Of a DNA stretch of 32,449 nt, positions 111-18,367 are shown in pieces. Source of the stretch: a virus; UHGV virus genome UHGV-1397781. The stretch is one strand, 5' to 3'. How positions within the stretch are numbered: the first letter of the stretch is position 1; the number at the start of each line of letters is the position of its first letter. Made by a program: the position numbers and the translations under genes. Below the pieces are notes generated by a model. That model was not told the origin of the DNA and searched no databases. It saw only the letters and a program-made list of their open reading frames with translations.

Positions 111-1181
111 TTATTTGATTTCAATTTTGTCCCACTCCCTGCCTCTGTCATCACGATACTGTGATGCCATGGTGTCCGACTTATGCCCGAGAAGATGTTG
201 AGCAAACTTATCGCTTATCTGCTTCTCATAGAGTCTTGCAGACAAACTGCGCAACTCGTGAAAGGTAGGCGGATCCCCTTCGAAGGAAAGACCTGATGCT
301 TTTCGTGCGCGCATAAAATACCTTGATACTGTGCCGGATGAAAGCGGTTCACGACGAGTAGATGCAATTATGGTTTCTCCGCCAAGAATCTCTTTGCATT
401 TATCAAGTGTTTCCTTCATTGATATCCCGAGAGCATCAACATGCAATGTTGTTGGGATGGCAATTTTTACGCCTGTTTTGCTTTGCTCGACATAAAGATA
501 TCCATCTACGATATCAGACCACTTCATTTCGCATAAATCACCAACTCGTTGCCCGGTAACAACAGCCAGTTCCATTGCAAGTCTGAGCCAACATGGTGAT
601 GATTCTGCTGCTTGATAAATTTTCAGGTATTCGTCAGCCGTAAGTCTTGATCTCCTTACCTCTGATTTTGCTGCGCGAGTGGCAGCGACAGGGTTTGTTG
701 TTATATGGCCTTCAGCTATTGCCTCTCGGAATGCATCGCTCAGTGTTGATCTGATTAACTTGGCTGACGCCGCCTTGCCCTCGTCTATGTATCCATTGAG
801 CATTGCCGCAATTTCTTTTGTGGTGATGTCTTCAAGTGGAGCATCAGGCAGACCCCTCCTTATTGCTTTAATTTTGCTCATGTAATTTATGAGTGTCTTC
901 TGCTTGATTCCTCTGCTGGCCAGGATTTTTTCGTAGCGATCAAGCCATGAATGTAACGTAACGGAATTATCACTGTTGATTCTCGCTGTCAGAGGCTTGT
1001 GTTTGTGTCCTGAAAATAACTCAATGTTGGCCTGTATGGCTTCAGTGATTGCGATTCGCCTGTCTCTGCCTAATCCAAACTCTTTACCCGTCCTTGGGTC
1101 CCTGTAGCAGTAATATCCATTGTTTCTTATATAAAGGTTAGGGGGTAAATCCCGGCGCTCATGACTTCGCCTTCTTCCCAT
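111..1181 (-). CDS. int: Tyrosine site-specific integrase, lambda Int type
   Basis: 356-aa ORF starting MGRRRSHERRDLPPNLYIRNNGYYCYRDPRTGKEF, recognised as lambda Int; ATG at 1179-1181. Confidence 0.97.
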   Translation of the reverse strand: MGRRRSHERRDLPPNLYIRNNGYYCYRDPRTGKEFGLGRDRRIAITEAIQANIELFSGHKHKPLTARINSDNSVTLHSWLDRYEKILASRGIKQKTLINYMSKIKAIRRGLPDAPLEDITTKEIAAMLNGYIDEGKAASAKLIRSTLSDAFREAIAEGHITTNPVAATRAAKSEVRRSRLTADEYLKIYQAAESSPCWLRLAMELAVVTGQRVGDLCEMKWSDIVDGYLYVEQSKTGVKIAIPTTLHVDALGISMKETLDKCKEILGGETIIASTRREPLSSGTVSRYFMRARKASGLSFEGDPPTFHELRSLSARLYEKQISDKFAQHLLGHKSDTMASQYRDDRGREWDKIEIK

Positions 1182-1377
1182 TTCTGATCCTCTTCAAAAG
1201 GCTACCTGTTACTGGTCGATTTAAGTCAACCTTTACCGCTGATTCGTGGAACAGATACTCTCTTCCATCCTTAACCGGAGGAGGGAATATCCTGCACTCG
1301 CGTACCCATCGACGAACTGTTTCAAGGCTTCTTGGGCGTCGCTGGCGTGCGTTCCACTCCTGAAGTGTCAAGTACAT
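1159..1377 (-). CDS. xis: Excisionase
   Basis: 72-aa ORF MYLTLQEWNARQRRPRSLETVRRWVRECRIFPPPVKDGREYLFHESAVKVDLNRP, recognised as lambda Xis; its 3' end overlaps the int start as in lambda. Confidence 0.95.
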   Translation of the reverse strand: MYLTLQEWNARQRRPRSLETVRRWVRECRIFPPPVKDGREYLFHESAVKVDLNRPVTGSLLKRIRNGKKAKS

Positions 1378-1597
1378 CGCAAAGTCTCCGCAATTACACG
1401 CAAGAAAAAACCGCCATCAGGCGGCTTGGTGTTCTTTCAGTTCTTCAATTCGAATATTGGTTACGTCTGCATGTGCTATCTGCGCCCACAGCATCCAGTG
1501 GTCATAGCAGTCGCTGATGTTCTCGGCTTCGATAACTCTGTTGAATGGTTCTCCATTCCATTCACCTGTGACTCGGAAGTGCATTTATCATCTCCAT

Positions 1598-1621
1598 AAA
1601 AAAAACTCGCCGTAGCGAGTT
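1598..1621 (-). terminator. Candidate rho-independent terminator for leftward transcription, between the accessory block and xis
   Basis: Stem aactcgc/gcgagtt with loop cgta at 1604-1621; on the minus strand it is followed by a T-run (plus-strand A-run 1598-1605). Confidence 0.45.
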
Positions 1622-1796
1622 CAGATAAAAGAAATCCCCGCGAGTGCGAGGATAGTTATTCATTGTCGATATTTACATTTATTTCGAATATCTTTACTGG
1701 GTAATCGCCAAAGTCATATATTTTTTATTCTGTTTTATAAGCACTACCAAGTACTGCTTATTACAAATAAGAAAAGGCTGAAAAAAATATTTAAGG

Positions 1797-1814
1797 CCAC
1801 AACTGTGGCCCTAA
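1797..1814 (-). terminator. Candidate terminator hairpin just downstream of the LprI-like gene
   Basis: ggccac-aact-gtggcc hairpin directly after the stop at 1821; the minus strand is T-rich immediately after the stem. Confidence 0.4.
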
Positions 1815-1820
1815 ATTTAC

Positions 1821-2519
1821 TTACGGCACTGCGTTAATCAGATTACAAATACCTCTTTTGGCAGGGTCTGAATTCAACTTCTGAAAATTGGCGTTCAACA
1901 TAGCCGTGTGTAAGTGATTCTCAACCTCAAAGAATAGGTCGATTTTGCCCTCTTTGGCTGCCTGTTTCTTCCAAATATTCACTTGGTCATCAGCAATACG
2001 ACTAGCGCAAGTGAACAAGAACGAACTGCCTCTAGGAATGGATGTCGTGCTGTAATACTCACCATCTACTTCTACATATTTAGCTCGGAATGACTCTAAG
2101 GTTAGCTTATTGCCGTTCTTGACCGACTTAGCTTCTGCCTTACTTGTATCTTCCTGCTCTTTAGAATGTTTCTGCGCCGACGTGGGTATGTCATTGGCCG
2201 CTGTTACGCTGACTGAACTCCCCAAACCTTTGAGGCCATTAATTTGGATAAGATAAGCCAGCTCCAGAGCCTTATTATCAGTGAGTTTTCCACGCATATT
2301 TACCCACTGACGTTGAACCATTTTTAGGGTGTCTGCGTTCTCTGGGTTTCCTTTGAGGGCACTAGAATAGGCAGAGCTAAGCTGTTCGTCTAATTTTGAC
2401 AGACGTTCGTTCTCGCAGATTTTATGTTCGATTGCTGTCGAAGCCTTTTGGCAGTCAAAGCTGGCTGCAAATGCACCCGGCGATGCCACTAACAATGATG
2501 CCAGTAGGATATTTTTCAT
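1821..2519 (-). CDS. Secreted DUF1311/LprI-like protein (signal peptide plus Cys-containing N-terminal domain), accessory gene
   Basis: Start chosen at MKNILLASLLVASPGAFAASFDCQ (ATG 2517-2519) with GGAG Shine-Dalgarno 4-5 nt upstream; hydrophobic signal peptide; pattern FDCQKAS..C..E..L..QL...Y.....QRQW..R resembles the DUF1311/LprI N-terminal domain; an in-frame upstream ATG exists at 2546. Confidence 0.55.
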   Translation of the reverse strand: MKNILLASLLVASPGAFAASFDCQKASTAIEHKICENERLSKLDEQLSSAYSSALKGNPENADTLKMVQRQWVNMRGKLTDNKALELAYLIQINGLKGLGSSVSVTAANDIPTSAQKHSKEQEDTSKAEAKSVKNGNKLTLESFRAKYVEVDGEYYSTTSIPRGSSFLFTCASRIADDQVNIWKKQAAKEGKIDLFFEVENHLHTAMLNANFQKLNSDPAKRGICNLINAVP

Positions 2520-2649
2520 ATTCACTCCATAAATACAAAAGCGCATTACTATAGCACTTAACCGATCGCTTATCTCGCCCGTTCGTCATTCTTATCTAAC
2601 CAGAACATGCGACTGCCACAGCACATGTCGAGGATTGCTGCATGTCCAG

Positions 2650-3198
2650 TCACTGGTTGCCTCCTTTGCGAAGCTGGGCGGCTAACTCATCACATATGTG
2701 CGTCAAAGAGCAAAGTTTGATTGATGGATGTTCGCGCATCATCTCCACCCCCTGCGCCCGTACTTCAGCCAGGAAAGCATCGGTGGCTGGCATATTTCCT
2801 GTTGCCTTCATGGCCTCCAAAATAACCAGAACACCATCTCTCCCAATCTCCTCGCAGATAACCTCGGTGCTGTCGCCAACAACATCGCAGAATTCCTGAA
2901 CTGCTTTACGAGCCAGCTCATTCTCCGCCGCCAGCGCCGAAAACTTCTCGTGTGCCAACTTAACAGCTGCATCAGCCTGCTTAATTGACTCAGTCGCTTT
3001 CTGGTGGTCTTCGGCCAGCCCTGCTAAATCAGCCTCCAGTTCGGCTAGGCGTTCATTTAATGCATCTCGTTCATCCAGTAGAGCCAGCACAACCTGAGGT
3101 GTGACTTTCATACGAAATGCCAGCAATTTTTGAGGTGTTGCTACTGTTTCAATTGCTACTGCCGCCTCACGCAGTGCCTGAGAGTTAATTTCGCTCAC
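2650..3198 (-). CDS. Acidic coiled-coil protein, tentatively Ead/Ea22-like
   Basis: 182-aa ORF in the position lambda uses for ea22; apparent GTG start at 3196-3198 overlapping the upstream stop (GTGA) with GAGAGG Shine-Dalgarno; Leu/Ala/Glu-rich heptad-like stretches. Confidence 0.45.
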   Translation of the reverse strand: MSEINSQALREAAVAIETVATPQKLLAFRMKVTPQVVLALLDERDALNERLAELEADLAGLAEDHQKATESIKQADAAVKLAHEKFSALAAENELARKAVQEFCDVVGDSTEVICEEIGRDGVLVILEAMKATGNMPATDAFLAEVRAQGVEMMREHPSIKLCSLTHICDELAAQLRKGGNQ

Positions 3199-3416
3199 TT
3201 CGAACCTCTCTGTTTACTGATAAGTTCCAGATCCTCCTGGCAACTTGCACAAGTCCGACAACCCTGAACGGCCAAGCGTCTTCGTTCATCTATCGGATCG
3301 CCACACTCACAACAATGAGTGGCAGATATAGCCTGGTGGTTCAGGCGGCGCATTTTTATTGCTGTGTTGCGCTGTAATTCTTCAATTTCTGATGCTGAAT
3401 CAATGATGTCTGCCAT
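3195..3416 (-). CDS. DksA/TraR-family C4 zinc-finger protein
   Basis: 73-aa ORF with C-x2-C ... C-x2-C spacing (CCECGDPIDERRRLAVQGCRTCASC) typical of TraR/DksA zinc fingers. Confidence 0.7.
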   Translation of the reverse strand: MADIIDSASEIEELQRNTAIKMRRLNHQAISATHCCECGDPIDERRRLAVQGCRTCASCQEDLELISKQRGSK

Positions 3417-3998: not shown

Positions 3999-4159
3999 AC
4001 CGTCTCCCGTTTATTATTTATCTTCTCAGCCAGCCGCTGTGCTTTCAGTGGATTTCTGATAACAGAAAGGCCGGGAAATACCCAGCCTCGCTTTGTAACG
4101 GAGTAGACGAAAGTGATCGCGCCTACCCGGATATTATCGTGAGGATGCGTCATCGCCAT
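3971..4159 (-). CDS. Lambda orf60a-like protein
   Basis: 62-aa [29 protein letters not shown] immediately upstream of exo, overlapping the orf63 start and the exo end as in lambda; GGGGAG Shine-Dalgarno. Confidence 0.5.
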
Positions 4160-4830
4160 TGCTCCCCAAATACAAAACCAATTTCAGCCAGTGCCTCGTC
4201 CATTTTTTCGATGAACTCCGGCACCATCTCGTCAAAACTCGCCATGTACTTTTCATTCCGCTCAATCACGACATAATGCAGGCCTTCACGCTTCATGCGC
4301 GGGTCATAGTTGGCAAAGTACCAGGCATCTTTTCGCGTCACCCACATGCTGTACTGCACCTGGGCCATGTAAGCCGACTTTATGGCCTCGAAACCACCGA
4401 GCCGGAACTTCATGAAATCCCGGGAGGTAAACGGGCATTTCAGCTCAAGGCCGTTGCCGTCACTGCATAAACCATCGGGAGAGCAGGCGGTGCGCATACT
4501 TTCGTCGCGATAGATGATCGGGGATTCAGTAACATTCACGCCGGAAGTAAACTCAAACAGGGCTCTGGCGTCATTCTCGTACTGTTTTCCCCAGGCCAGC
4601 GCCTTAGCGTTAACTTCCGGAGCCACACCGGTGCAAATCTCAGCCAGCAGGGTGTGAAAGTAGGACATTTTCATGTCAGGCCACTTTTTACCGGAGCGGG
4701 GTTTTGCTATCACATTGTGAACTTCTGAAGCCGTGATGACGCCGAGTCGTAATTTGTTCCACGCATCATCTCCCTGTTCGACAGCTCTCACGTCGATCCC
4801 GGTACGCTGCAGGATAATGTCCGGTGTCAT
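4150..4830 (-). CDS. exo: Lambda exonuclease (Red-alpha)
   Basis: 226-aa [27 protein letters not shown]... recognised as lambda Exo; ATGA overlap with the bet stop. Confidence 0.97.
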
Positions 4831-6132: not shown

Positions 6133-6265
6133 TTTTTGGGACTCCTGGCTGATTAAGTATGTCGATAAGGCGTTTCCATCCGTCACGTAATTTACGGGTG
6201 ATTCGTTCAAGTAAAGATTCGGAAGGGCAGCCAGCAACAGGCCACCCTGCAATGGCATATTGCAT
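6101..6265 (-). CDS. cIII: cIII, inhibitor of FtsH-mediated cII degradation
   Basis: Not in the ORF track (under 60 aa). Manual reverse-complement translation from ATG 6263-6265 gives [54 protein letters not shown], stop at 6101-6103. Confidence 0.85.
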   Translation of the reverse strand: MQYAIAGWPVAGCPSESLLERITRKLRDGWKRLIDILNQPGVPKNGSNTYGYPD

Positions 6266-6337
6266 GGTGTGCTCCTTATTTATACATAACGAAAAACGCC
6301 TCGAGTGAAGCGTTATTGGTATGCGGTAACGCCGCGC

Positions 6338-6877: not shown

Positions 6878-6896
6878 AAACCCGCCTGAGCGGGTT
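6878..6896 (-). terminator. Candidate terminator hairpin at the 3' end of the novel AT-rich gene
   Basis: aacccgc-ctga-gcgggtt perfect 7-bp stem overlapping the stop codon; minus-strand sequence after the stem is tcattttcacg. Confidence 0.4.
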
Positions 6897-7764
6897 ATGA
6901 CCACTTTTTGTTTGGATTTCGTTGGTGAGCGTGGTTTACAGGATTATTTGATATACCCCATAACTCTGACTCGCTTATCTCTACACGAGAGAAAGACCTG
7001 CTTTCTTTCAGTTCTTTTATAAACCTAGAACCTACGATGACATCTATTGTCCCAGAAAGTTCTTGTAAAAGATCTTTGTTTTTTCTGAGGAAGAAAACAT
7101 CTTCTTTATATTTAATTTTTACATAGAATTTATTCTGTATTTTTAATATATCAAAGCATGGCAGATATCTATATCCCTCATGCTTTCGCCACTGCTTAAC
7201 AATTATAACATCTCTTTCATTTACTGCATTAATCAGCCCAAGACCAAGTATAGGTATGAATATTCTATTGTCTGCCGAAAGCGTACAATTATTACCACCA
7301 GGCAAATATGTATAAATCATGTCGGAATTTTTATACGCATCAACGAATGCACGTAAGAATCGTACATATTTTTGCCATCCGTTTATACCAAATTTACCAT
7401 ATAAGTATTCTTTATTTGTTAGAAGAAAACTATTTGTATCAGGAGCCTTATCTACAGACCTGTCGATAAGATCTCCAACTACGTTTACAAAGTCAAAGAC
7501 AGAGTTTAATAAGAACAATTGTCTTTCAGTCGGGCGAATTTCAATTATGTAGCCTGGATGAAGACGATATTGCATCTGCTTACGAAGTATGCTGAACGCT
7601 TGGGTCCGGGCATCTGAAAGCAACTTCCTGTCGCCATCGCCGTGAGCATTGTTTCTAATAAAACTGATATAATTTGCTAATTTTTCAGCCTCTTTTTTGT
7701 GTTTTTTTCGCTCTGATGCCGAGTCTATTGGTTTTGGTATGGACTTGTAATCAATTTTCTTCAT
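6895..7764 (-). CDS. Hypothetical 289-aa protein, AT-rich cargo gene at the ral/sieB position; function unknown
   Basis: Long ORF with no lambda counterpart I recognise; start placed at MKKIDYK (ATG 7762-7764) with GAGGT Shine-Dalgarno 5 nt upstream; an alternative ATG at 7774-7776 overlaps the N stop (ATGA); composition visibly more AT-rich than flanking lambda genes. Confidence 0.65.
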   Translation of the reverse strand: MKKIDYKSIPKPIDSASERKKHKKEAEKLANYISFIRNNAHGDGDRKLLSDARTQAFSILRKQMQYRLHPGYIIEIRPTERQLFLLNSVFDFVNVVGDLIDRSVDKAPDTNSFLLTNKEYLYGKFGINGWQKYVRFLRAFVDAYKNSDMIYTYLPGGNNCTLSADNRIFIPILGLGLINAVNERDVIIVKQWRKHEGYRYLPCFDILKIQNKFYVKIKYKEDVFFLRKNKDLLQELSGTIDVIVGSRFIKELKESRSFSRVEISESELWGISNNPVNHAHQRNPNKKWS

Positions 7765-7772
7765 TACGTACC

Positions 7773-8096
7773 TCATGCCAATGGAATGGATTTCCCTTTA
7801 ACCTTTTGTCTTCCTTGACAAGTTATACCGAACTCACTTGGCTTGCTATACCAAACTCGATGATTCTTGCGCTCAATACGTTGCAGGTTGCTTTCAATCT
7901 GTTCGTGGTATTCAGCCAGCACCGTAAGGTCTATCGGATTCAGTGCGCTTTCTACTCGTGATTTCGGTTTGCGATTCAGCGAGAGAATAGGGCGGTTAAC
8001 TGGTTTTGCGCTTACCCCAACCAACAGGGGATTTGCTGCTTTCCATTGAGCCTGTTTCTCTGCGCGACGTTCGCGGCGGCGTGTTTGTGCATCCAT
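7773..8096 (-). CDS. N: Antitermination protein N
   Basis: Internal start MDAQTRRRERRAEKQAQWKAANPLLVGVSAKPVNRPILSLNRKPKSRVESALNPIDLTVLAEYH (ATG 8094-8096), recognised as lambda N. Confidence 0.92.
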   Translation of the reverse strand: MDAQTRRRERRAEKQAQWKAANPLLVGVSAKPVNRPILSLNRKPKSRVESALNPIDLTVLAEYHEQIESNLQRIERKNHRVWYSKPSEFGITCQGRQKVKGKSIPLA

Positions 8097-8254
8097 CTGG
8101 ATTCTCTTGTCAGTTAGCTTTGGTGGTGTGTGTGAGTCGTAGTCCTGAACGAAAACACCCCACGATTGGCTCATTTGCAGCTAATCCGGATTCGCACTTC
8201 CGGCCAATGCTTCGTTTCGTATCACACACCCCAAAGCCTTCTGCTTTGAATGCT

Positions 8255-8448: not shown

Positions 8449-9801
<1,353 letters not shown>

Positions 9802-15049: not shown

Positions 15050-16132
15050 TTAGAACTGGTAAACCATACCTACAGCAACGATATCATCGGTAGCAACGCC
15101 AGATGCTTTCGTGAAATCGCTCTTATCAATCAGGTTGATTTTGTAGTCAACAAAAGTGGACATATTTTTGTTGAAGTAATAGGTTGCACCTACATCAACA
15201 TATTCAACCAGGTCCTGATCACCCCAAACACCCAAGTCTTTTCCTTTAGAATGCAGGTAAGCAACGGATGGACGCAGGCCGAAGTCGAACTGATATTGTG
15301 CAACAGCTTCGAAGTTTTGTGCTTTGTTGGCAATATGGTTATTACCAAAAACAGTCATGTTCTGGGTTTCAGAATAGGTGGTGGCCAGATAGATGTTGTT
15401 CGCATCATATTTCAGACCAGCTGCCCATACTTCAGCATTTTGACCAGAAGCATTCAGACCGTTGTTACCGTAGATAACCTGATTATTAGCGCGATCAGAT
15501 TTAGCATAGGTTGCACCCACGCCGAATCCTTCATACTCATAAGTAGTTGAGAAACCGAAACCATCGCCATTAGCTTCAGTTACTTCATTTCGGTCATTTT
15601 TGCCCTGATACTGAGCTGCAAAGTTCAGGCCATCAACCAGACCAAAGAAGTCGTTGTTACGATAAGTTGCAACACCAGTGGTGCGACCAGTCATGAACAC
15701 ATCTGTTTGGGTCCAGGTATCGCCACCGAATTCTGGCAGAACGTCAGTCCACGCACCGATGTCGTATGCTACACCGTAGTTACGGCCGTAATCGATTGAG
15801 CCGTAGTCACCGAATTTCAGGCCTGCAAATGCAAGACGGGTTTTGTCTTTGGAGGAACCTTGAGATTCAGCGCGGTTGCCTTTGAATTCATATTCCCACT
15901 GACCGAAACCAGTCAGTTGATCGTTGATTTGGGTTTCACCTTTGAAGCCAAGACGGGCATAAGTAGTATCACCATCATCTGCATCATTAGAGGAGAAGTA
16001 GTGCTTAGCATTAACTTTCCCGTACAGATCCAGCTTGTTACTGTCTTTATTATAAATTTCAGCTGCCTGAGCAGACATCGCCATCAGTACTGATGCAGCT
16101 ACAGCAGAAATTGCCACTGTTAATTTTTTCAT
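15050..16132 (-). CDS. nmpC: OmpC/OmpF-family outer-membrane porin (NmpC/Lc-like), prophage-encoded
   Basis: 360-aa ORF with signal peptide [23 protein letters not shown], porin hallmarks ([25 protein letters not shown]-terminal YQF); sits between Q and the lysis genes on the opposite strand, as nmpC does in DLP12. Confidence 0.93.
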
Positions 16133-16705: not shown

Positions 16706-16921
16706 ATGAAATCCATGGATAAGTTAACAACGGGTGTCGCCTATGGCACCTCAGCAGGTAGTGCCGGGTACTGGTTTTTACAGCTGCTAGATAAAGTCAC
16801 GCCCTCACAGTGGGCGGCAATTGGAGTGCTGGGTAGCCTGGTATTTGGCCTGCTGACGTACCTGACAAACCTTTATTTCAAGATTAAAGAAGATAAGCGT
16901 AAGGCTGCGAGAGGTGAATAA
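16706..16921 (+). CDS. S: Class II holin, phage 21 S21 pinholin type
   Basis: 71-aa [74 protein letters not shown]; M-K-S-M dual-start motif. Confidence 0.9.
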
Positions 16922-17418
16922 TGTCGCCATCATTACGCAAGGCTGTAGCAGCTGCTATTGGTGGTGGGGCTGTTGCCATAGCGTCTGTGCTCATCACTGG
17001 TCCGAGTGGTGACGATGGTCTGGAAGGTGTCAGCTACATACCATATAAAGATATTGTTGGTGTATGGACTGTATGTCACGGGCATACAGGAAAAGACATC
17101 ATGCTCGGTAAAACGTATACCAAAGCAGAATGCAAAGCACTCTTGAATAAAGACCTTGCCACTGTCGCCAGACAAATTAACCCGTACATCAAAGTCGATA
17201 TACCGGAAACAACGCGCGGCGCTCTTTACTCATTCGTTTACAACGTGGGTGCTGGCAATTTCAGAACATCGACGCTTCTTCGCAAAATAAACCAGGGCGA
17301 TATCAAAGGCGCATGTGATCAGCTACGTCGCTGGACATATGCTGGCGGTAAGCAATGGAAAGGTCTCATGACTCGTCGTGAGATTGAGCGTGAAATCTGT
17401 TTGTGGGGTCAGCAATGA
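16921..17418 (+). CDS. R: SAR endolysin (lysozyme with N-terminal signal-anchor-release domain)
   Basis: 165-aa ORF with hydrophobic Gly/Ala-rich N-terminus ([20 protein letters not shown]) followed by a lysozyme-like domain; start overlaps the holin stop. Confidence 0.9.
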
Positions 17419-17876
17419 ACAGAGTAACCGCGATTATCTCCGCTCTGGTTATCTGCATCATCGTCTGCCTGTCATGGGCTGTTAATCATTACCGTGATAA
17501 CGCCATTACCTACAAAGCCCAGCGCGACAAAAATGCCAGAGAACTGAAGCTGGCGAACGCGGCAATTACTGACATGCAGATGCGTCAGCGTGATGTTGCT
17601 GCGCTCGATGCAAAATACACGAAGGAGTTAGCTGATGCGAAAGCTGAAAATGATGCTCTGCGTGATGATGTTGCCGCTGGTCGTCGTCGGTTGCACATCA
17701 AAGCAGTCTGTCAGTCAGTGCGTGAAGCCACCACCGCCTCCGGCGTGGATAATGCAGCCTCCCCCCGACTGGCAGACACCGCTGAACGGGATTATTTCAC
17801 CCTCAGAGAGAGGCTGATCACTATGCAAAAACAACTGGAAGGAACCCAGAAGTATATTAATGAGCAGTGCAGATAG
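17415..17876 (+). CDS. Rz: Rz i-spanin
   Basis: Start [19 protein letters not shown] (ATG 17415, ATGA overlap with the endolysin stop); N-terminal transmembrane segment then coiled-coil. Confidence 0.9.
17635..17817 (+). CDS. Rz1: Rz1 o-spanin lipoprotein, embedded in the +1 frame of Rz
   Basis: 60-aa [27 protein letters not shown] with lipobox (VVGC) and proline-rich segment [15 protein letters not shown], wholly inside Rz. Confidence 0.85.
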
Positions 17877-17907
17877 AGCTGCCCATATCGATGGGCAACT
17901 CATGCAA

Positions 17908-18201
17908 TTATTGTGAGCAATACACACGCGCTTCCAGCGGAGTATAAATGCCTAAAGTAATAAAACCGAGAAATCCATTTACGAATGTTTGCTGGGTTTC
18001 TGTTTTAACAACATTTTCTGCGCCGCCACAAATTTGGGCTGCATCAACAGTTTTCTCCTGTCCAATTCCCGAAACGAAGAAATGATGGGTGATGGTTTCC
18101 TTTGGTGTTACTGCTGTCGGTTTGTTTCCAACAGTAAACGTCTGTTGAGCACATCCTGTAATAAGCATTGCCAGAGCGGCAGAAAACAACATTTTTTTCA
18201 T
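17908..18201 (-). CDS. bor: Bor lipoprotein (serum-resistance lysogenic conversion factor)
   Basis: Internal start MKKMLFSAALAMLITGCAQQTFTVGNKPTAVTPKETITHHFFVSGIGQ (ATG 18199-18201, AGGA Shine-Dalgarno), recognised as lambda Bor. Confidence 0.9.
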   Translation of the reverse strand: MKKMLFSAALAMLITGCAQQTFTVGNKPTAVTPKETITHHFFVSGIGQEKTVDAAQICGGAENVVKTETQQTFVNGFLGFITLGIYTPLEARVYCSQ

Positions 18202-18367
18202 CTTATTATCCTGCATTGTTAAAAACGGCAGAATCCTATGTGACAACAATTAAACGATAGTTAAATGGATTGATGAAAATTAAAACTATATAGGTGGATG
18301 CTCAGCCTATTGGAGGAGGGGGGCACTCAGAATCCTGTGGAATGAAATAAACCGCTCTATCTGTCCA

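Follow-up and report, generated by a model that had tools for sequence, protein, structure and literature searches.

The virus genome UHGV-1397781, a single stretch of 32,449 nucleotides that we refer to as the window, is a lambda-like phage genome that shares 99.9% identity with Escherichia phage ev099 over positions 1400-3300. In the leftward reading, int (111..1181) and xis (1159..1377) adjoin a 55-codon open reading frame (ORF) shared with lambda (1417..1584), which is followed by the gene considered here, encoding a protein with an LprI (formerly DUF1311) domain. Beyond it lie an Ea22-like gene (2650..3198), a DksA-like zinc-finger gene, exo, bet and gam. A preliminary description of this DNA had put the LprI-domain gene next to xis, but the 55-codon ORF intervenes. 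The gene very probably encodes an exported LprI-domain protein and sits on a moron-like cassette (Table 1).

Anatomy of the LprI-domain protein

The longest reading of the minus-strand ORF in the ORF list is 1821..2546 (241 codons). Translation almost certainly begins from the ATG at 2519 and yields a protein of 232 amino acids (aa): ev099 gp35 uses the same ATG in RefSeq, and the homologues all begin M-K-N/K. We rejected the 241-aa reading from the ATG at 2546, which has no ribosome-binding site, whereas RefSeq and the homologues start at MKN. That upstream ATG is also only 2 nt past the candidate -10 element described below and would lie upstream of the inferred transcription start near 2541, a position that would exclude the longer reading. 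The 232-aa protein matches PHROG 4675, a family listed as of unknown function, over its full length (E 7.8e-94).

A Sec-type signal peptide was assigned by eye from a lysine at position 2, a hydrophobic core and the A-x-A pattern at -3/-1. It is kept in the homologues, in which it is followed by an A-S-F-D-C motif. A lipoprotein reading was rejected because there is no lipobox cysteine. These features lend good support to the prediction of a soluble, Sec-exported, periplasmic protein.

Residues 23-78 match Pfam family PF07007 (LprI) at 26.7 bits, above the curated cut-off of 22 (E 7.7e-6). This is the sole Pfam match of the protein and spans profile positions 1-70 of 106; PF07007 is also carried by 11 relatives with precomputed Pfam assignments. 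In an AlphaFold2 model built with 25 sequences, residues 19-99 form a four-helix domain (predicted local distance difference test (pLDDT) 82-90) that matches two crystal structures of the DUF1311 type, 3GI7 (Pseudomonas putida PP0307) and 6AR7 (Burkholderia thailandensis). The conserved residues of this N-terminal domain are C23, C35, D44, Y51, Q69, W72 and R76. Its likeness to PF07007 proteins consists in predicted secretion, the A-S-F-D-C...C start and the D/Y/Q/W/R motif positions, whereas it departs from the family norm in its partial coverage of the profile, in the loss of the second of two cysteine pairs and in the addition of a linker and an orphan C-terminal domain. The site of the second pair, which in most close relatives reads N-x-C-x-D-x-x-C, reads GKLTDNKA here; a few relatives, P0137 and P0186 among them, likewise have no second pair. 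A phmmer search of PDB sequences with the whole protein returned nothing meaningful, a profile of close relatives of the N-terminal domain found no match among PDB sequences, and the NCBIfam matches (CpoB, A1S_1983 and mevalonate kinase) were all noise below the threshold.

The C-terminal domain (modelled extent, residues 141-230) is also modelled with confidence when taken alone (pLDDT 91.3, predicted template modelling score 0.82). It has no Pfam family, comparison of its model yielded no fold relative, and a word-indexed search with its profile, which is a weak test, recovered only fragments of the same family. The possibility that it is a degenerate LprI copy produced by internal duplication was rejected (hhalign probability 0.1%). 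Its conserved residues G153, C171, N209 and C225 include a cysteine pair of its own (C171 and C225), separate from that of the N-terminal domain (C23 and C35). One conserved pair per domain would suit disulfide bonding in the predicted periplasmic location.

Comparison with the homologue in the phage-plasmid SSU5 gives a ratio of non-synonymous to synonymous substitution rates (dN/dS) of 0.17 overall, with values of 0.10 for the N-terminal domain, 0.07 for the C-terminal domain and 1.14 for the linker, the length and sequence of which vary among homologues. The linker evolves neutrally. The low ratios on either side of it argue for two functional domains on a neutral tether, and the structure models provide good support for a predicted arrangement in which two helical domains fold independently and a flexible linker connects them.

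Much of what the preliminary description had said about the gene agrees with these results. The 232-aa signal-peptide protein, the strong GGAG Shine-Dalgarno sequence and the DUF1311/LprI assignment are all borne out, the last by both the profile search and the structure prediction, and the C-terminal part indeed has no assignable family. The DUF1311 cysteine pattern that it had recognized is present in the first pair and missing in the second.

Table 1. Positions in the window of the LprI-domain gene, its product's domains and its cassette
Feature	Positions	Strand	Description
Intrinsic terminator	1779..1816	minus	12-bp stem, 4-nt loop, then ATTTTTTT; terminator scan
Coding sequence (CDS)	1821..2519	minus	232 aa and stop TAA at 1823..1821; predicted exported two-domain protein, PHROG 4675
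Orphan C-terminal domain	1824..2111	minus	codons 137-232; short helix, beta-hairpin and three long helices
Disordered polar linker	2112..2219	minus	codons 101-136; pLDDT <50
LprI/DUF1311 helical domain	2220..2465	minus	codons 19-100; helices 29-36, 38-57, 59-76 and 82-99
Predicted Sec-type signal peptide	2466..2519	minus	codons 1-18, MKNILLASLLVASPGAFA; cleavage after A-F-A, between MKNILLASLLVASPGAFA and AS
Shine-Dalgarno GGAG	2525..2528	minus	5 nt before the ATG; invariant in the SSU5 and strain M1 copies
Candidate extended -10, TGcTATAGT	2548..2556	minus	weak -35 GAGATA, 3/6 match
Core mobile module	1781..2588	minus	terminator, CDS, ribosome-binding site and promoter-like region; 82-83% nucleotide identity with SSU5-type phage-plasmids
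Lambdoid-prophage form of the cassette	1622..2670	minus	found with differing integrases and upstream genes; includes spacer 1660..1780

The cassette and its distribution

The hairpin of the terminator (1816..1789) begins 5 nt past the stop codon of the LprI-domain gene and on its coding strand, confirming the own-strand hairpin and T-run of the preliminary description. Its fold energy is -17.6 kcal/mol (z = -4.07 against shuffles), and the GGCCAC/GTGGCC stem is kept in SSU5. At the other end of the gene, a TGnTATAGT element lies 29 nt upstream of the ATG. The SSU5 version reads TGaTATAGT, and the sequence farther upstream diverges. The motif TGNTATART occurs three times on both strands of the 32-kb window, against 1.2 expected. 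It is plausible that the gene has a weak autonomous extended -10 promoter here, which we treat as a candidate only, and from which transcription would start near 2541.

The leftward strand carries three more terminator-like hairpins with T-runs, at 1408..1427, 1603..1622 and 1634..1653, which flank the 55-codon ORF. They are also found in lambda, because the surrounding DNA is 97% identical to lambda. Together with the terminator of the LprI-domain gene they place four such hairpins within 430 nt ahead of xis and int.

Homology to lambda (97-98%) ends at position 1659 and resumes at 3154, so that the insert replaces ea8.5 and most of ea22. This agrees with the accessory slot of ea8.5/ea22-type genes to which the preliminary description had assigned the gene, except that only ea8.5 is fully replaced and the Ea22-like gene is kept as a mosaic. 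In this minus-strand gene (PF13935) the first ~15 codons (3154..3198) are 98% lambda-like, and the rest has no DNA relation to lambda ea22 save for a 39-bp patch.

Comparison with 31 IMG/VR viral loci, SSU5 and E. coli strain M1 delimits a cassette of 0.8-1.05 kb with sharp boundaries and a G+C content slightly below that of its neighbours. In lambdoid prophages one end recurs at 1587 or 1622 and the other at 2670, 2686 or 2790, and in SSU5-type elements the ends fall at 1781 and 2576-2588. The SSU5 core, for which loci L036-L042 and L002 were compared, begins 8 nt outside the terminator hairpin and ends ~32 nt upstream of TGcTATAGT. It is well supported by these alignments that the gene travels as a compact cassette of promoter-like element, ribosome-binding site, CDS and terminator, both in lambdoid prophages and in SSU5-type phage-plasmids.

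The spacer at 1660..1780 is AT-rich (35-37% G+C) and non-coding, with no ORF and no lambda homology; it accompanies the cassette in lambdoid prophages and is absent from SSU5-type elements. On the other side, an 86-bp stretch (2565..2650) upstream of the core has matches of 93-94% beside S-adenosylmethionine-dependent methyltransferase genes in ~350 E. coli genomes, many of those sampled being O157:H7 and O111 strains. This stretch may be a recombination linker shared between accessory modules.

Lambdoid morons such as bor and lom are likewise insertions with their own terminator and promoter-like element, variable presence, sharp boundaries and lower G+C. The LprI cassette has a terminator of its own directly 3' of the gene, is absent from lambda and has discrete, recurrent boundaries. 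It differs from morons in that the gene is oriented as the pL operon and in that its expression in the lysogen is a prediction only; with this orientation, the gene would also be read in lytic growth. The autonomous, host-directed cargo of the preliminary description is thus strengthened as regards autonomy, by the sharp boundaries and the conserved extended -10 element, whereas host-directed action fits poorly with the homologues found in virulent T4-like phages.

Close relatives (73-81% identity) are encoded on ~110-kb SSU5-type phage-plasmid contigs of Salmonella, Citrobacter, Enterobacter and Klebsiella, under the database names "DUF1311 domain-containing" or "lysozyme inhibitor LprI family protein". 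A full-length copy is present in 124 of 5426 complete E. coli genomes, the carriers including avian and other animal-associated E. coli. A related-locus search with the single protein returned only close relatives. An exhaustive HMMER search collected 5021 representative proteins at E <= 0.001, nearly all of which match the N-terminal domain only; about seven 50%-identity clusters share both domains. In relatives of the N-terminal domain the fusion partners are ankyrin repeats, CHAT protease domains, tandem LprI copies and unclassified regions.

In a phage collection we found 154 matching records, mostly from virulent T4-like phages (Aeromonas 65, Escherichia 49, Klebsiella 24); most of the Escherichia records sampled are Krischvirus/RB49-like. 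The Aeromonas and Klebsiella T4-like proteins match PHROG 4675 across both domains. In Krischvirus relatives the N-terminal domain is retained and the C-terminus differs (PHROG 14799). The homologue of three T4-like lineages lies in the early-gene region, between primase gp61 and dCTPase gp56. The T4-like Aeromonas phage Aswh_1 carries its homologue (4025..4627) between the baseplate wedge genes gp8 and gp9/10, in the opposite orientation.

A putative role against peptidoglycan hydrolases

The identification of the protein is not new: in RefSeq, "lysozyme inhibitor LprI family protein" is already the name of its counterparts in ev099, SSU5 and E. coli. As early as 2006 a weak, non-significant Pfam DUF1311 match (0.2) was flagged for RB49 ORF260c (PMC1524935), and our literature search found no paper testing any phage member of the family. 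The present analysis adds the two-domain anatomy with a strongly constrained orphan C-terminal domain, the cassette boundaries and candidate promoter, the spread over temperate and virulent phages, and the caution that the functional name "lysozyme inhibitor" has not been earned. LprI/DUF1311 is a very large family of secreted domains for which that name is thinly evidenced.

Lysozyme inhibition, which the preliminary description had raised as a possible activity, derives from the family name only. M. tuberculosis LprI, in the account of Sethi et al. 2016 relayed by PMC7933661, shares with the phage protein an LprI domain and an envelope location. As described there, however, it is a lipoprotein that also has an MliC domain, and this MliC domain, which is sufficient for lysozyme resistance, plausibly accounts for its activity (PMC7933661). 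The phage protein has neither a lipobox nor an MliC domain, so that the family name is no ground for ascribing inhibitor activity to it. No Pfam match to an MliC (PF09864), PliC or Ivy-type inhibitor domain was obtained up to E 10, and the protein model is helical except for one beta-hairpin, unlike the beta-rich proven inhibitors (MliC/PliC, Ivy, PliG and PliI), whose domain places a loop in the active site.

Other relatives are connected with enzymes of the cell wall. Salmonella ScwA, a soluble periplasmic LprI-domain protein such as the phage protein is predicted to be, has four conserved cysteines that form two disulfides and is tied to the control of peptidoglycan hydrolases: it raises the level of the lytic transglycosylase MltD, and its prolonged overproduction leads to lysis (PMC7933661). 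Compared by description, not by sequence, ScwA differs in that its LprI domain is C-terminal (residues 185-271 of 275) and in that it is chromosomal (PMC7933661). The DUF1311 protein Etsi4 of enterohaemorrhagic E. coli O157 rescues cells from Etse4, a type VI secretion system (T6SS) effector that acts in the periplasm (PMC12981562), and in Pantoea and Salmonella Dublin the neighbours of LprI-domain genes include T6SS effectors that are lysozyme-like or transglycosylases (PMC9796082, PMC8867033, PMC12135965). Like the phage protein, these immunity proteins, which are putative in Pantoea and Salmonella Dublin, belong to the LprI family and have a signal peptide, and they counter periplasmic toxins that target the cell wall; they are, however, single-domain proteins of ~146-149 aa. 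The phage protein has no meaningful pairwise similarity to Etsi4 (BLASTP E 8.7), which itself falls under the Pfam LprI cut-off (18.7 bits). No effector gene is adjacent at the window locus, nor in the SSU5 or T4-like contexts examined; the neighbours here are the Ea22-like gene and the 55-codon lambda ORF, not a peptidoglycan-targeting effector. The most apt description of the LprI domain is that of a secreted binding module of helical fold; several of its members, though not all, deal with peptidoglycan hydrolases.

A functional parallel is offered by T4 Spackle (gp61.3), a small helical bundle with disulfide bonding that is made early, resides in the periplasm, inhibits the gp5 tail lysozyme and acts in superinfection exclusion (PMC7677548). 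The LprI-domain protein is also phage-encoded, predicted to be exported and helical, with a conserved cysteine pair, but it is three times larger and has two domains, and neither its sequence nor the fold of its model shows similarity to Spackle. In T4-like phages its homologues share the early gene block of Spackle: the Spackle gene of RB14 lies between genes 41 and 61, one slot from the gp61-gp56 site that the homologue occupies in other T4-like phages. Two Spackle queries retrieved 131 and 921 phage records, from both of which Aeromonas phages are essentially absent, yet 65 Aeromonas phage records carry the LprI-protein family; Spackle is not detectable in the T4-like phages of Aeromonas. 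This pattern is compatible with functional substitution for Spackle but is weak evidence for it, given the shortness and divergence of Spackle and the presence of both proteins in Klebsiella phages.

Phage proteins that act early and in the periplasm are known to serve either in superinfection exclusion or in the control of lysis. We propose that the LprI-domain protein would bind and neutralize a peptidoglycan-degrading enzyme in the periplasm. Because temperate and strictly lytic phages alike retain the protein, the most likely target would be the wall-piercing lysozyme or transglycosylase of incoming phages, and the outcome would be superinfection exclusion by an analogue, not a homologue, of T4 Spackle. 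The full-length homologues in the early blocks of virulent T4-like phages likewise make a benefit during infection likelier than one confined to the lysogen. The gene would be transcribed in the lysogen from its own weak extended -10 promoter and in lytic growth by N-antiterminated read-through from pL, and the terminator would keep constitutive transcripts from entering xis and int. By analogy with the relatives above, antagonism of a peptidoglycan hydrolase is a serious but tentative possibility, and superinfection exclusion in particular is distinctly more doubtful. To the full proposal we assign a probability of roughly one in five. It holds that PHROG 4675 would be an unrecognized class of periplasmic superinfection-exclusion proteins in lambdoid, SSU5-type and T4-like phages, an independently evolved analogue of Spackle in which the LprI domain would neutralize the incoming muramidase and the C-terminal domain would give a second contact or specificity.

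Several points weigh against this proposal, which rests on inference. Lysozyme inhibition is not established for the isolated LprI domain, which is itself without experimental support as an inhibitor, and deletion of ScwA leaves lysozyme susceptibility unchanged (PMC7933661). The phage protein retains only the first of the family's two cysteine pairs. The LprI domain is a promiscuous N-terminal module found in varied fusions and may thus be a general scaffold or binding domain. Some Klebsiella T4-like phages hold both Spackle and a PHROG 4675 member, so that the two are not simply interchangeable. The candidate promoter is weak and received no call in a generic promoter scan, and PADLOC defence models gave no match.

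The protein might instead, in line with the preliminary description, be lysogenic-conversion cargo, that is, a periplasmic orphan immunity protein or lysozyme inhibitor that shields the lysogen from animal lysozyme or from T6SS peptidoglycan-hydrolase effectors. An accessory-slot cassette with its own promoter-like element and terminator would suit such a role, as would the presence in the same phage of other moron-type envelope genes (a porin and bor) and the animal-associated carriers among E. coli, and LprI-domain proteins have been proposed, and once shown, to be T6SS immunity proteins (PMC12981562, PMC9796082, PMC8867033). We nevertheless regard it as unlikely, given that the strictly virulent T4-like phages with full-length homologues have no lysogen to protect, that no effector gene adjoins the LprI-domain gene, that similarity to Etsi4 and any MliC, PliC or Ivy-type domain are lacking, and that ScwA showed no role in lysozyme resistance (PMC7933661). 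Rather less credible is a regulator or buffer of resident peptidoglycan hydrolases, which would act on host lytic transglycosylases in the manner of ScwA, whose effects on MltD and on lysis (PMC7933661) speak for it, or would serve as a safety catch on the phage's own signal-anchor-release (SAR) endolysin against premature lysis. The phage does encode an S21-type pinholin and an R21-like SAR endolysin with a PF00959 lysozyme domain (16706..17418), and the LprI-domain gene lies on the path of the pL early transcript. However, in the T4-like carriers, as in T4, the endolysin is cytoplasmic and works with a canonical holin, and the C-terminal LprI domain of ScwA represents a different architecture.

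A further reading takes the LprI domain as merely a secreted scaffold or tether and lets the orphan C-terminal domain act on a non-hydrolase target such as a receptor, a porin, DNA entry or a component of envelope stress or signalling. It draws on the fusion of LprI domains to many unrelated C-terminal modules, on the C-terminal domain being both a fold orphan and the most constrained part of the protein, and on the Krischvirus relatives, which keep the N-terminal domain with a different C-terminus; yet the N-terminal domain is equally constrained and positive evidence for any alternative target is absent, and we judge this reading improbable too. A chance ORF or decaying remnant is effectively refuted by selection and conservation: both domains are under purifying selection, homologues are conserved across phages of Enterobacterales and Aeromonas, the signal peptide, ribosome-binding site and terminator are intact, and the structure models are confident.

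In kind the finding is ordinary: it concerns a variant of a known domain family that is carried by phages and whose putative role can be tested. A compact, strongly selected version carried by temperate and lytic phages is a convenient handle on what the LprI domain binds. If the protein does block the cell-wall enzymes of incoming phages, as in the exclusion role proposed here, it would represent a new exclusion mechanism, and an isolated LprI/DUF1311 domain would for the first time have a defined activity; this would bear on host-range failures in phage therapy and on the immunity that prophages give to E. coli, Salmonella and Klebsiella. Should it have no such effect, the case would be a useful warning against current automatic annotation.

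Other accessory genes of the window

An OmpC/NmpC-like porin gene (360 aa; 15050..16132, minus strand), whose product has its own signal peptide, is flanked by the Q antiterminator region and the lysis genes. Its orientation is opposite to that of the late operon, and it seems to be a second accessory gene directed at the envelope; its equivalent in ev099 is annotated "porin OmpD". The lysis cassette (16706..18249) is phage-21-like, not lambda-like, and comprises a 71-aa S21-like pinholin and the SAR endolysin (16921..17418, PF00959), in which the SAR segment is N-terminal and R21-like, followed by nested Rz/Rz1 and then by a Bor-like lipoprotein gene on the opposite strand. An endolysin of this type is a membrane-tethered lysozyme, exported ahead of lysis and kept inactive at the membrane. 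The occurrence of an exported lysozyme and a putative periplasmic LprI protein in one phage may or may not be a coincidence.

Two more minus-strand ORFs have no Pfam family. One, of 293 aa (6895..7776), starts at the stop of the N-like antiterminator gene (7773..8174), in a region that appears to differ from ev099, where shorter hypothetical genes are annotated. The other, of 158 aa (8449..8925), lies directly downstream of the cI-like repressor gene (8850..9482; helix-turn-helix and Peptidase_S24 domains), in the slot that rexAB occupy in lambda and that holds a NYN-domain gene in ev099, and is a candidate exclusion or defence gene. The sole Rfam match in the window is Lambda_thermo (RF01804), the cIII thermoregulator element, at 6220..6278 on the minus strand (88.5 bits).

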